From: a virus
Lineage: Duplodnaviria > Heunggongvirae > Uroviricota > Caudoviricetes
IMG/VR virus record: IMGVR_UViG_2645727563_000002
Coordinates: 1-55,868 of that record
Length of the DNA stretch: 55,868 nt
Reading direction: 5' to 3' (one strand)
Below are positions 28,842-31,367 of this stretch, in pieces. The notes beneath the pieces were generated by a model. The model saw nothing but the letters and a program-made list of their open reading frames with translations, made no database searches and was not told where the DNA came from. Numbering within the stretch: position 1 is the first letter of the stretch; every line of letters starts with the position of its first letter. Position numbers and translations under genes: made by a program.

Positions 28842-29471
28842 ATGAACATACCACCCAGGGCGACTAGGACTGTTTTTTGTGTCGGTAGCGGTCCGTCACT
28901 CACTCGTGAGGACTGTGCTGCTATAGAAAAAACTGGCTGTTCAATCATCGCGGTTAACAATTCCTGGCAGATGTTCGATGACATTTATGCCTTATACGCC
29001 GGTGATTTGTCATGGTGGAAGCAATACGGATCCACCATACCGGGAGGGAAATTCCGCAAAGTGACAGCCAACCTGGCGGCGGCGAAATCATTTTCGTTGG
29101 AGTACAGGCGATATTGTGGACCGGCGGAAGGGGTAAATAGCGGCGCGCAGGCTATCAGTCTGGCTGCTGAATCAGGGGCTGAAGTAGTTGTATTAGTCGG
29201 CTATGACTGTTCTCTGCAAAACGGCCTTCATTGGCATGGCGCGCACCCTCAAGCCCTACGGAATCCAACGCAGGTGTCTATTTCAAAATGGCAACAGCAG
29301 TTCCTGGATACCCGCAAAAAACACGCAGATTTACATATTTTGAATGCAAGTAGGAGCAGTGCAATTCAATGTTTCCCAAGAATAAATTTAGAGGCAGTGA
29401 TCGCGTTATTATCGTCGGCAGTGGCCCAAGCGCCGCAAACTTTGTTGCGCCGCGCGGAGTGCCGATTATAG
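28842..29471 (+). CDS. MptE/Maf-like (DUF115-type) protein, paralog A (about 209 aa)
   Basis: VGSGPS...IIAVN and ...LVGYD motifs; ATG at 28842. Confidence 0.45.
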   Translation: MNIPPRATRTVFCVGSGPSLTREDCAAIEKTGCSIIAVNNSWQMFDDIYALYAGDLSWWKQYGSTIPGGKFRKVTANLAAAKSFSLEYRRYCGPAEGVNSGAQAISLAAESGAEVVVLVGYDCSLQNGLHWHGAHPQALRNPTQVSISKWQQQFLDTRKKHADLHILNASRSSAIQCFPRINLEAVIALLSSAVAQAPQTLLRRAECRL

Positions 29472-29995
29472 CGGTCAATGGGGCCATCGACTGGCTGAAC
29501 CGCGCTTCTTATTTTTTCACACTTGATCCATCGCCAGACAATATGCGGCGCGTTGGTCGTGGCCGCCGTCGCCGTGGTGTTTGTTATTGCATGGCACTAC
29601 CCGATGTTAAAGAACGTGAAGTCAGAGATGGCGTTCTGTGCTTCCGTCGTGTGGCTGAACGCGGCATGGAGCCAAAAAATACGAATTCTCCCGAGTGGTG
29701 GGCGTGGCGCTGGTCCGCACATTTCGGCCTTTGCGAAGATGAGAATGAAATTGCCAGCGGCAATAGTGCATATGGTGCTCTGAACCTGGCTTTCCATATC
29801 GGATTCAAACATGTAGCTCTGGTGGGCGTTGACGCTACGCAAGAACTACGCGTTCACTCCGGCGGCACGCCAAAAAATCTAAGTCACCTGCCTTTGTTAT
29901 TCCAGTCTGCGCGTGAACAGATTGACGTTGTTTCATGCGGGAAAATGGGAGGTATTCCGCAGATGACTCTTAAAGAATGGCTGAAGAATACATGA
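29369..29995 (+). CDS. MptE/Maf-like (DUF115-type) protein, paralog B (208 aa)
   Basis: VGSGPS...IIAVN...LVGVD; strong RBS taggag before ATG 29369; overlaps paralog A by about 100 nt. Confidence 0.5.
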
Positions 29996-30669
29996 TGGCA
30001 CCCACAATTTATCACCGTATCGACGGTACCAAATACAGGAATGTCTGGGTTGTTGGTGATCTGCATGGTTGCTACACCAGACTGATGTCCGAACTCCATC
30101 GTGTGGATTTTGACCCGGCGCAGGATTTACTGATATCGGTCGGCGACCTTATCGATCGCGGTACTGAAAATGTCGAATGTCTGGAACTATTGCAGATGCC
30201 CTGGTTCAGGGCAGTGATGGGGAACCATGAGCGGCTGATGATTGATGCGTTAAGTCCAGATGGCAACGTGAATAACTGGCTAATGAATGGCGGACAATGG
30301 TTCTTCATGCTGGACACTGATCAGGAAATATTAGCCTGGGCGCTGGTGGAGCTGGTAAAGCGTCTGCCCTATATCATTGAGTTGAACACCGGGCAAGAAA
30401 CTATCGTTATAGCCCATGCCGACTATCCGGATAATGAATACCAATTCGGTAAGGAGGTGCCGCTTTTCAACGTTGTCTGGGCGCGCGAGCGTATCAGTGA
30501 TTCGATGGATGATATTGGTGGCGAAATTTCGGGCGCAGATCGTTTTATCTTTGGTCACACTCCGGTGAAAAGCCCGAAGACATTCTGGAATCAGCAGTAT
30601 ATCGACACTGGTGCCGTATTTTGCGGAAACCTGACATTGATGAAAGTGAAAGGTGATGGTGCAGCATGA
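29992..30669 (+). CDS. ppp: Ser/Thr protein phosphatase (lambda PPase family)
   Basis: GDLHGC, GDLIDRG, GNHE motifs; colinear with lambda phosphatase. Confidence 0.85.
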
Positions 30670-31367
30670 AGATTGCTTTAGTTTTTCGCTCTGGTGGTGA
30701 CTATAACGCTTCCGATGTGCAGTGGCTGGTTAATCAACTGCCAAAAGGCTATGAAATTATTTGCCTGACAGACCTGAAGCGTTTACATGTACCTGGCGTC
30801 AAAGTTGTCCCATTGATCAACCAGTGGCAAAAGTGCCGTGGCTGGTGGGCGAAAATCGAGTTGTTCCGACCGGATATAACAGATGATCTGTTCTATCTGG
30901 ATTTGGACACAGTTATTGCCGGTGATATACGCCCAATCCTTGAGAATCCACCAACCAGCTTCACCATGCTTAGGGATTTTTACCATCCACAATATCGTGG
31001 TAGCGGTGCCCTGTGGATACCAAATAGTGTAAAAGCGCATATCTGGAGTTCATTCTGGCAAGATCCGGAAGGTTGGATTTCTCGTTGTGTCACTACTGAG
31101 TGCTGGGGTGATCAGGGGTTCTTACGGAAGGTTATGGGCGATGATACACCAGCATTTCAGGATCTGTATCCAGGATGGTTTGTAAGTTACAAGGCCGATG
31201 TTGTGGAACCTGGTTCAAAATATGCGAGCGCGCGTTACTCCAGGGGGAATGGGGCATTACCAAAGGACTGCCGAATAATCTTTTTCCACGGCAAACCGCG
31301 ACCTCGCGAAGTGTCAGAGGATTGGCTTCCCCTTATTAGCTCGTTTTTTGAGCGAGAATCAGAATAA
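30666..31367 (+). CDS. hypothetical protein, possible nucleotide-sugar transferase-like fold (233 aa)
   Basis: Rossmann-like N-terminus and YLDLD (DxD-like) motif; assignment weak. Confidence 0.4.

Follow-up and report, generated by a model that had tools for sequence, protein, structure and literature searches.

A conserved PmgO-PmgP-PmgQ gene cassette in P1-like phage-plasmids and other phages of Gram-negative bacteria is a probable glycosyltransferase system

Few phages have been used as widely in genetics as P1, and clinical Enterobacteriaceae commonly harbor P1-like phage-plasmids. What, then, do the genes of the pmgN-pmgO-pmgP-ppp-pmgQ operon carried by these elements do? We examined this locus at positions 28,842 to 31,367 of a 55,868-nucleotide Caudoviricetes sequence (IMG/VR record IMGVR_UViG_2645727563_000002, positions 1 to 55,868; this whole stretch is referred to here as the window). 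The 2.9 kb around the locus were 98 to 99.6% identical to Escherichia phages RCS47, P1, P7, and SJ46, with RCS47 (99.6%) and not P1 itself (98.4%) closest to the window, and matching sequence was present in 587 PLSDB plasmid records. Therefore, the window is a P1-like phage-plasmid, and the locus is the operon named above. The annotations of P1 (NC_005856) and P7 match the window's open reading frames (ORFs) one to one, with identical gene coordinates for pmgO and pmgP. The annotation of the locus, "putative morphogenetic function," dates back to the P1 genome paper of 2004. In RefSeq and PHROGs, PmgO is named an alpha-2,3-sialyltransferase and PmgQ (PHROG 1962) a glycosyltransferase. No paper on the function of pmgO, pmgP, or pmgQ, on phage MptE-like proteins, or on glycosylation in P1 turned up in our literature search. 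What was already known is the P1 genes themselves and names at the family level. A first-pass annotation of the DNA had grouped two MptE/Maf-like paralogs, a phosphatase, a DxD-motif protein, and a downstream phosphatase into a possible module for the modification of a small molecule, a glycan, or a nucleic acid. Of these targets, our results favor a glycan, and they remove the phosphatases from the module.

The unit that recurs among phages is PmgO, PmgP, and PmgQ. Outside the P1 group, loci were scanned with hidden Markov models (HMMs) built from PmgO, PmgP, and PmgQ alignments; the diverse loci came from a one-genome-per-species collection, and a scan of IMG/VR with the PmgP alignment gave only P1 copies. 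PmgQ stood beside PmgP in all 17 loci with enough flanking sequence, and PmgO was present in 15 of 20 loci. The hosts were Enterobacterales, Pseudomonas, Zhongshania, Microbulbifer, a Methylophilaceae metagenome-assembled genome (MAG), Brevundimonas, Sinomicrobium (Bacteroidota), and a Longimicrobiales MAG (Gemmatimonadota). They span the Gamma-, Beta-, and Alphaproteobacteria, Bacteroidota, and Gemmatimonadota, and all hosts identified are diderms bearing lipopolysaccharide (LPS). PmgP proteins were 35 to 60% identical across phyla, and the PmgO family comprised 7,589 cluster representatives at an E value of ≤1e-3 in a library of 1.84 billion proteins. In contrast to this constancy, ppp was missing between the P and Q genes in 11 loci (L003, L004, L005, L009, L101, and L103 to L108); Ppp was restricted to P1-like genomes (L093 and L006 to L008) and Pap, the downstream phosphatase, to those and L009, a distant P1-like contig. 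PmgO, PmgP, and PmgQ are therefore an old cassette, widespread in phages and prophages of Gram-negative bacteria, with the phosphatases outside it, and ppp is a P1-lineage insertion or passenger tied to the cassette by co-transcription only.

The surroundings of the cassette were also informative. In prophages of Pseudomonas (L005) and Zhongshania (L101), it lies within the head genes, in the order terminase, portal, protease, major capsid, PmgO-PmgP-(x)-PmgQ, and head-tail connectors. The P7 annotation likewise records that HdmB, the P7 counterpart of PmgO, is similar to orf7 of Pseudomonas aeruginosa phage D3. In enterobacterial chromosomes (L095:3269-15338 and L096 to L099), the three genes are interleaved with genes for invasin/intimin-type (inverse-autotransporter) Big_1 proteins, the Big_1-rich neighbors being 1166, 845, and 494 amino acids (aa) long; in Serratia (L004:674-3115), two Big_1 proteins of ~296 aa flank the PmgO homologue; and in one protein, P0229, a PmgO-like domain is fused to Big_1 domains. 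It is possible that these Big_1 neighbors are acceptor proteins. Methyltransferases of types commonly associated with sugars recur as well. A class-I methyltransferase gene lies between the P and Q genes of L101, an FkbM-type gene follows the cassette in L107, and an FkbM plus class-I methyltransferase fusion adjoins it in L108; in addition, P0316 joins a TylF-like domain to a PmgO-like one, and L158 encodes a PmgQ-like protein with a fused FkbM domain. Some loci have a fourth small gene (L005 9254-9835, L003 9757-10335, and also L100 and L102) with weak similarity to Nucleotid_trans, beyond which it had no informative Pfam, NCBIfam, or PDB match. Finally, PmgO and PmgP are fused in nature (P0051), and tandem-domain proteins also occur (P0223, P0245, and P0296). 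Because such fusions recur, we argue that the two paralogs work together.

Next, we considered what PmgO and PmgP are. Both translations contain the VGSGPS...IIAVN...LVG(Y/V)D motifs ascribed to them in the first-pass annotation, as CVGSGPS, IIAVNN, and LVGYD in PmgO and as IVGSGPS, IIAVNG, and LVGVD in PmgP. The ORFs had also been placed correctly, except that the start given for pmgO, 28842, is an internal codon (Met12) of a gene that begins at 28809. In a pairwise BLASTP comparison, the two proteins aligned at the N-terminal motif only (E = 0.003); their family profiles aligned over the full length by hhalign, with 98.2% probability and an E value of 6.5e-14. PmgO and PmgP are thus genuine, old, diverged paralogs, which PHROGs places in separate families that cross-match. 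PmgP is the better conserved of the two and carries an insertion of ~30 aa (EP..SPEWWxWRWS).

The AlphaFold2 models of PmgO and PmgP had predicted local distance difference test (pLDDT) values of 86.7 and 93.2 and predicted template modeling (pTM) scores of 0.83 and 0.91, and both had the fold of solved MptE-like superfamily members (Maf and MptE). With fold-match scores given for the PmgO and PmgP models in that order, the Maf flagellin glycosyltransferase (5mu5) scored 13.8 and 12.9, the archaeal MptE (8sd5) 11.8 and 12.3, Campylobacter Cst-I (2p56) 10.8 and 10.7, thiamin pyrophosphokinases about 8 to 10 and about 7 to 9, and sialyltransferases of glycosyltransferase (GT) family GT29 about 8 to 9 and about 7 to 9. 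Maf was the top match of both models, with the longest alignment (161 to 163 residues), and Foldseek concurred (Maf at E = 1.9e-5). PDB sequence searches, with single sequences and with the PmgP profile, gave nothing meaningful for PmgO or PmgP, and the relation to solved structures, as judged from the models, is visible at the fold level only. A combined PmgO and PmgP profile matched Cst-II with an E value of about 0.1, at the nucleotide-binding motifs GNGPS and TSG...GIDF. It has been reported that Maf activity requires an acidic residue, a serine, and an aspartate (D272, S334, and D357 in CbMaf; E324 and D415 in MmMaf). An invariant D...S...D series is present in PmgO (D66, S111, and D133) and in PmgP (D53, S133, and D155), with a Ser-to-Asp spacing of 22, compared to 23 in CbMaf, and from this Maf-like spacing both copies look catalytically competent. 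PmgO and PmgP are thus modeled as bare ~200-aa catalytic cores of the Maf/sialyltransferase (MptE-like, DUF115) fold and are predicted to be soluble and cytoplasmic.

The third protein, PmgQ, had been singled out for a possible nucleotide-sugar-transferase motif, and its family profile bears this out. The motif reads YLDLDT in the translation. A profile of 26 PmgQ sequences matched the Skp1 alpha-galactosyltransferase AgtA (6mw5) in the PDB with an E value of 2.1e-8 and glycogenins at about 1e-3. D79-x-D81 is invariant in all 26 sequences and aligns to the DxD of AgtA and glycogenin, and an invariant F-H208-G-x-P-R-P aligns to the H-x-x-G-x-x-K-P-W region of GT8 enzymes. PmgQ shares the DxD with the retaining GT8 enzymes (glycogenin, AgtA, LgtC, and LPS core transferases), and a C-terminal (H)-x-G-x-x-(K/R)-P may be common to them as well. 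However, PmgQ is shorter than these enzymes (233 aa), and its single sequence had no Pfam match at an E value of ≤0.1, Glyco_transf_8 included; a viral relative scored 18.7 bits against PF01501, for which the cutoff is 24.3. By sequence, PmgQ is therefore best described as a putative GT8-like, DxD-dependent GT-A glycosyltransferase.

A lead to the sugar donor came from the distant P1-like contig L009 (logan:SRR14843460_11017), whose PmgO, PmgP, and PmgQ are 50, 57, and 57% identical to those of the window. L009 carries kdsB, the gene for the synthetase of cytidine monophosphate (CMP)-activated 3-deoxy-D-manno-oct-2-ulosonic acid (Kdo), at 9658-10425 (TIGR00466, 270 bits against a cutoff of 155; 47% identity to E. 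coli KdsB). This gene lies three genes past the pmgS homologue, adjoins the pap homologue, and is preceded by a 271-aa ORF (8846-9661) that had no informative Pfam, NCBIfam, or PDB match. A scan for close relatives with the L009 KdsB gave none, and 66 viral KdsB-type loci were instead collected from IMG/VR through an alignment that included E. coli KdsB. In 13 of the 66, a gene resembling PmgO or PmgP, PmgQ, or the fourth component lay within 10 kb. KdsB was the best NCBIfam model in every case at these 13 loci, and of six loci tested, two exceeded a KdsB subfamily cutoff. Given a family frequency of only a few in a million proteins, a share of 13 in 66 would lie far beyond any plausible background, an estimate made from that frequency and not from matched random loci. 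A PmgQ-like gene directly follows kdsB in L152 and L153, and six large environmental viral contigs in IMG/VR (L123, L130, L134, L135, L143, and L162) encode fusions of ~510 aa between the fourth component and a PmgO-like MptE domain, 6 to 9 kb upstream of kdsB. Giant-virus contigs were among the kdsB matches, and in a giant-virus MAG (L118) a fourth-component-like gene adjoins kdsB. In L167, kdsB is accompanied by a PmgO-like gene and by a 720-aa protein that combines PmgQ-like, GT2, and GT29 domains. It has also been shown that Maf enzymes expressed in E. coli take the endogenous CMP-Kdo and form Ser/Thr-O-Kdo on flagellin.

These observations can be assembled into a proposed mechanism. PmgO and PmgP, which occur as fusions in some relatives and so probably form a heterodimer, would act jointly in transferring a CMP-activated ulosonic acid. 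To our knowledge, CMP-Kdo is the only such donor in E. coli K-12 and would be the one used there. PmgQ would then add a hexose from a uridine diphosphate (UDP)-sugar, and the product would be a short glycan on a cytoplasmic protein acceptor, in phages most likely a virion protein. We hold with some confidence that the triad is a glycosyltransferase cassette. That its donor is CMP-Kdo or another ulosonic acid is a plausible proposal to which we give slightly less than an even chance, and that its acceptor is a protein is a tentative one; within the latter, a virion protein as the acceptor is on the doubtful side. Taken together, a lytic-phase cytoplasmic glycosylation cassette, probably CMP-Kdo dependent and protein directed, is a reading that we regard as evenly poised, its donor and target being inferred. 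The strongest form, that P1 and many temperate phages of Gram-negative bacteria O-glycosylate their own virion proteins with host CMP-Kdo through the PmgO/PmgP pair and PmgQ, we consider rather improbable. A protein target is hinted at by the position of the cassette directly after the major capsid gene in the two prophages, by the Big_1 interleaving and the P0229 fusion, and by the lack of a transmembrane or hydrophobic segment in any protein of the operon. By analogy, another hint may come from glycogenin and AgtA, the best solved relatives of PmgQ, which act on protein-linked glycans.

Several observations weigh against this reading. Deletions of pmgO, pmgP, pmgQ, and ppp and knockdowns by CRISPR interference (CRISPRi) gave no plaquing defect and left antirestriction unchanged, and the paper on the P1 structure and proteome makes no mention of glycosylation. 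The Big_1 neighbors had no detectable relative among the window or P1 proteins or in other phage loci; in a search for a shared acceptor, the capsid C termini of L005 and L101 were not conspicuously rich in Ser or Thr. In the HMM alignment, the metal-binding histidine of GT8 falls two positions before H208 of PmgQ, and the correspondence of PmgO and PmgP with the catalytic residues of Maf rests on motif order and spacing, not on superposition. PF01973 (MptE-like) scored PmgO at 23.6 and PmgP at 20.9 bits, under the gathering threshold of 34.6, in matches that cover only the C-terminal NSG...GxD segment. By Pfam's rule, both proteins are outliers of the MptE-like/DUF115 family, although the fusion relative P0051 passes at 44.6 bits and many homologues carry a precomputed PF01973 match. 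The family assignment made in the first-pass annotation thus held at the level of fold, with Maf as the top match, and fell short at the Pfam threshold. As for the donor, only 1 of roughly 20 loci with the cassette has kdsB beside it. The single NCBIfam match of PmgP, TIGR04437 (WaaZ), reached 11.9 bits (E = 0.1) against a cutoff of 200, and when E. coli K-12 WaaZ was compared with both families by hhalign, the E values were 3e-4 and 6e-4 but the probabilities only 41 and 29%. The WaaZ similarity alone is weak; the kdsB gene of L009 and the kdsB linkage in 13 of 66 viral loci are independent of it and strengthen the Kdo lead.

The same WaaZ matches can be read in another way, in which PmgO and PmgP act like WaaZ at the cytoplasmic face of the inner membrane, PmgQ acts like WaaO, WaaJ, or LgtC, and the cassette, active in lytic growth, edits the LPS core that serves as receptor. 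GT8 includes glucosyl- and galactosyltransferases of the LPS core, and the receptor of P1 is the LPS core. Such LPS remodeling would also accommodate the faint precomputed PF27901 (WaaZ_KDO_III) match on P0051, the hhalign alignment of WaaZ through the NSG...GxD segment and a C-terminal I-x-N-x-S region, the linkage to kdsB, and the fact that the operon proteins, like WaaZ, are all soluble; an altered core could block superinfection or the loss of progeny on cell debris. We nevertheless consider it unlikely. The WaaZ scores are low, the best structural match is a protein O-glycosyltransferase, and the post-capsid position and Big_1 interleaving point to protein targets. The conservation of PmgP across phyla with differing LPS cores also fits a phage-borne acceptor better.

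Less probable still is that PmgO and PmgP are small-molecule pyrophosphokinases like MptE or thiamin pyrophosphokinase, with Ppp and Pap handling a phosphorylated metabolite or signal. The fold permits this, and P1 has two phosphatases nearby, but Maf outranks MptE as the match of both models, and the phosphatases are not conserved with the cassette. Its constant partners are instead glycosyltransferase-like proteins and sugar-type methyltransferases, kdsB is linked to it, and one relative is a fusion with GT2 and GT29 domains. A cassette that adds sugars to phage DNA or RNA in order to evade restriction is the most improbable of these functions and would be very surprising. DNA glycosyltransferases are known from T-even phages, and two neighbors of the operon, pmgM (VRR-NUC) and pap (PNKP-type HAD), would suit a nucleic-acid role. 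However, no hydroxymethyl-base pathway lay beside the cassette in any locus examined, the published deletions left antirestriction as it was, and the structural relatives act on proteins or glycans. We know of no glycosylation of P1 DNA.

The glycosyltransferase reading can be set against the known systems that the three proteins resemble. Maf (motility-associated factor), a flagellin nonulosonic-acid O-glycosyltransferase (for example, Magnetospirillum 5mu5 and the enzymes of Clostridium botulinum and Geobacillus kaustophilus), belongs to the same MptE-like superfamily, shows the same acidic/Ser/Asp spacing, glycosylates proteins on oxygen in the cytoplasm, and can use CMP-Kdo in E. coli. Maf proteins, however, are ~600 aa long with additional N- and C-terminal flagellin-recognition domains, whereas PmgO and PmgP are paired bare cores, and their sequence identity to Maf is only 16 to 17%. 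No flagellar or nonulosonic-acid synthesis gene was found in any cassette locus examined. Because the flanking domains and the flagellar context are lacking, PmgO and PmgP are not Maf proper. With the GT42 enzymes Cst-I and Cst-II of Campylobacter jejuni, they share an alignable N-terminal G-x-G-P-S and (T/N)-S-G...G-x-D, the likeness on which the RefSeq and PHROG name alpha-2,3-sialyltransferase is based; the sequence match (E = 0.1 to 0.3) is not significant. Since E. coli K-12 is without CMP-sialic acid, that name is probably wrong about the sugar. Among named Kdo transferases, only WaaZ (GT73; TIGR04437/PF27901) was touched by the profiles; it uses CMP-Kdo and is soluble and small (283 aa). 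It is, however, encoded in the waa LPS cluster and not among phage structural genes, and the similarity is marginal. MptE (8sd5), the archaeal 6-hydroxymethyl-7,8-dihydropterin pyrophosphokinase and namesake of PF01973, is, like the thiamin pyrophosphokinases, an ATP-dependent small-molecule kinase that shares no gene context with the cassette, none of whose constant partners fits a pterin or thiamin pathway. PmgO, PmgP, and PmgQ also fall below the PF01973, TIGR04437, and PF01501 thresholds; they are best seen as a minimal paired core of the Maf/GT42 type with a GT8-like enzyme. Virus-encoded glycosyltransferases reportedly decorate capsid and tail proteins of mycobacteriophages, and the giant virus CroV is said to carry Kdo pathway genes. 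The enzyme families and hosts of those systems differ from those of the cassette, and a glycosylated virion protein of P1 or its relatives is hypothetical.

The overlap between the two paralog genes raised a separate question, namely, whether they are really two genes. The first-pass annotation had described an out-of-frame overlap of about 100 nucleotides (nt) and had allowed for a frameshift or sequencing error; its length is 103 nt, pmgP is read in the -1 frame with respect to pmgO, and the overlap is no artifact. All 84 P1-like sequences compared (IMG/VR contigs, two genome contigs, and the P1 and P7 references) have ORFs of 220 and 208 aa with the same 103-nt overlap, in only five sequence variants. 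In relatives whose PmgO is 74, 69, 61, and 50% identical, the genes overlap by 70, 70, 49, and ~109 nt; in the last of these, L009, pmgP had been shortened by the gene caller, and an open frame with the conserved N terminus begins 35 codons upstream. The overlap is just 11 nt in the Pseudomonas prophage, and in one phage contig the two genes are fused in frame. The conserved domain of PmgO ends at about residue 200 to 206 and is followed by a low-pLDDT tail whose length and sequence vary and whose last ~15 residues are unconserved; residues 1 to 10 of PmgP are variable, and its first strand begins at residue 12. Therefore, most of the overlap pairs conserved codons with unconserved ones. The overlap is the unconserved tail of PmgO running across the start of pmgP, which is benign anatomy. 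The Shine-Dalgarno sequence of pmgP, AGGAG (29353-29357), lies within the codons of the conserved N-x-S-R motif of PmgO and is kept in relatives.

A single split gene or sequencing artifact was thus ruled out by the identity of the two ORFs in all 84 sequences. We also considered a programmed -1 ribosomal frameshift that would yield a PmgO-PmgP fusion. The -1 frame of pmgP, the existence of natural in-frame fusions such as P0051, and two heptamers within the overlap, A_AAT_TTA (29384, canonical) and T_TTC_CCA (29372), would be compatible with one. However, neither heptamer is conserved across the relatives L006 to L008: A_AAT_TTA is missing from all three, and T_TTC_CCA, a by-product of conserved Cys-Phe-Pro codons, is lost in L006. 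A stretch of 33 codons would contain such a heptamer by chance with a probability of ~0.13, and pmgP has its own conserved AGGAG and ATG. Frameshifting was therefore rejected, and together with its trivial version, sequencing error, we regard it as highly improbable.

The organization of the operon is summarized in Table 1.

Table 1. Features of the pmgN-pmgQ operon and the adjoining genes in the window
Feature	Position	Strand	Description	Basis
Oppp (Op83)	28651-28667	-	C1 repressor operator; window sequence AAATTAATTAGTGCATA	Mapped from P1 NC_005856
pmgN	28712-28867	+	Small ORF, 51 aa from ATG	ORF list and P1 annotation
pmgO (hdmB in P7)	28809-29471	+	220 aa; alternative start Met12 at 28842	
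Dual-coding overlap	29369-29471	+	103 nt; PmgO residues 187-220 in frame 0, PmgP residues 1-34 in frame -1	
pmgP (hdmC in P7)	29369-29995	+	208 aa, second paralog	
ppp	29977-30669	+	Lambda-type Ser/Thr protein phosphatase, 230 aa	
pmgQ (hdmD in P7)	30666-31367	+	233 aa, putative GT8-like GT-A glycosyltransferase	
OpmgRa	31369-31385	+	C1 operator	Operator scan and P1 annotation
OpmgRb	31418-31434	-	C1 operator	Operator scan and P1 annotation
pmgR	31449-31667		Next unit	
pmgS	31669-32931		Next unit	
pap	33004-33510		HAD phosphatase	

According to the P1 annotation, Oppp stands ahead of the operon with the predicted promoter PpmgN immediately upstream, and the late promoter LPpmgL also lies upstream of the operon. 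The operon ends at OpmgRa and OpmgRb, where the pmgR-pmgS unit begins, and the single strong intrinsic terminator in the area (32951-32979) follows pmgS. From this layout of C1 operators, promoter, and terminator, we conclude that the operon is silent in the prophage and expressed during lytic development. The C1 operator consensus ATTGCTCTAATAAATTT had 13 matches in the window at ≤3 mismatches, compared to 0.24 expected by chance (for example, 17886-17902, 27744-27760, 31369-31385, 33510-33526, and 50417-50433). Oppp has four mismatches and is not listed by the three-mismatch scan; it was the most divergent operator among those checked. All operon junctions overlap, by 59 nt at pmgN-pmgO, 103 nt at pmgO-pmgP, 19 nt at pmgP-ppp, and 4 nt at ppp-pmgQ, which fits with translational coupling, and translation along the operon is probably coupled through these overlapping starts and stops.

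Mutants with pmgN, pmgO, pmgP, pmgQ, ppp, or pap deleted in frame have been published (Gonzales et al. 2022), and the genes are dispensable; CRISPRi likewise scored pmgO, pmgP, ppp, and pmgQ as nonessential. The reports on pmgN conflict, in that CRISPRi scored it as essential (efficiency of plating, 1.4e-2), yet its in-frame deletion is viable. This conflict is not due to polarity on pmgO through pmgQ because those genes are nonessential. The pmgN gene (PHROG 2350, function unknown) was found only in P1-like genomes, and a small ORF occupies its place in L006 to L008.

The two phosphatases that the first-pass annotation had noted are as described. Ppp carries GDLHGC, GDLIDRG, and GNHE and scored 59.3 bits against Metallophos (cutoff, 21.5) and 272.5 bits against PRK11439, under the equivalog cutoff of 326; Pap scored 45.1 bits against HAD_PNKP. 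Ppp shares GDxHG, GDxxDRG, and GNHE with lambda PP/NinI and E. coli PrpA and PrpB, and its identity to lambda PP is 64% according to the P1 annotation. Unlike lambda PP/NinI, it is inserted between pmgP and pmgQ, and this in P1-like genomes only. Pap is a PNKP-type HAD phosphatase domain alone, with no kinase domain. Just ahead of the operon, pmgM (28066-28644) is VRR-NUC nuclease-like at 21.2 bits, just below the cutoff, and in L008 a gene for an Rv2179c-like 3'-5' exoribonuclease lies between the pmgS and pap homologues. PmgM, Pap, and this exoribonuclease hint at an RNA or DNA end-processing function apart from the cassette. Downstream of pap, the window has ORFs of 241, 73, 71, and 214 aa at 33705-35510, an arrangement unlike that of pmgT, pmgU, and pmgV in the P1 reference. 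Away from the operon, Dbn (dbn, 21875-22873, + strand) scored 25.0 bits against Glycos_transf_1 (GT-B; cutoff, 26.4), so that P1 may encode an additional, fourth glycosyltransferase; Dbn bears no relation to the fourth component seen with the cassette in other phages.

Taken together, these results re-read the locus as a unit of PmgO, PmgP, and PmgQ without the phosphatases, spread across phyla and linked to CMP-Kdo synthesis and to structural and surface-protein genes. The combination of the three genes, its breadth among phages, and its linkage to kdsB and to capsid and Ig-like genes were not described in the literature that we searched. In place of a "putative morphogenetic function," the locus now carries a specific hypothesis that can be tested on existing deletion strains. 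If the target is LPS, the operon would provide a new lytic-phase receptor-editing function. If it is a virion protein modified from CMP-Kdo, this would be a natural Ser/Thr-O-Kdo modification and the first virion glycosylation system described from phages that infect Gram-negative bacteria, one to which plaque assays would be blind and by which stability, immune recognition, or adsorption could be affected. A virion target would extend phage self-glycosylation from mycobacteriophages to Gram-negative systems, with a bearing on the immunogenicity of therapeutic phages and on glyco-engineering with small, soluble Kdo or ulosonic-acid transferases.

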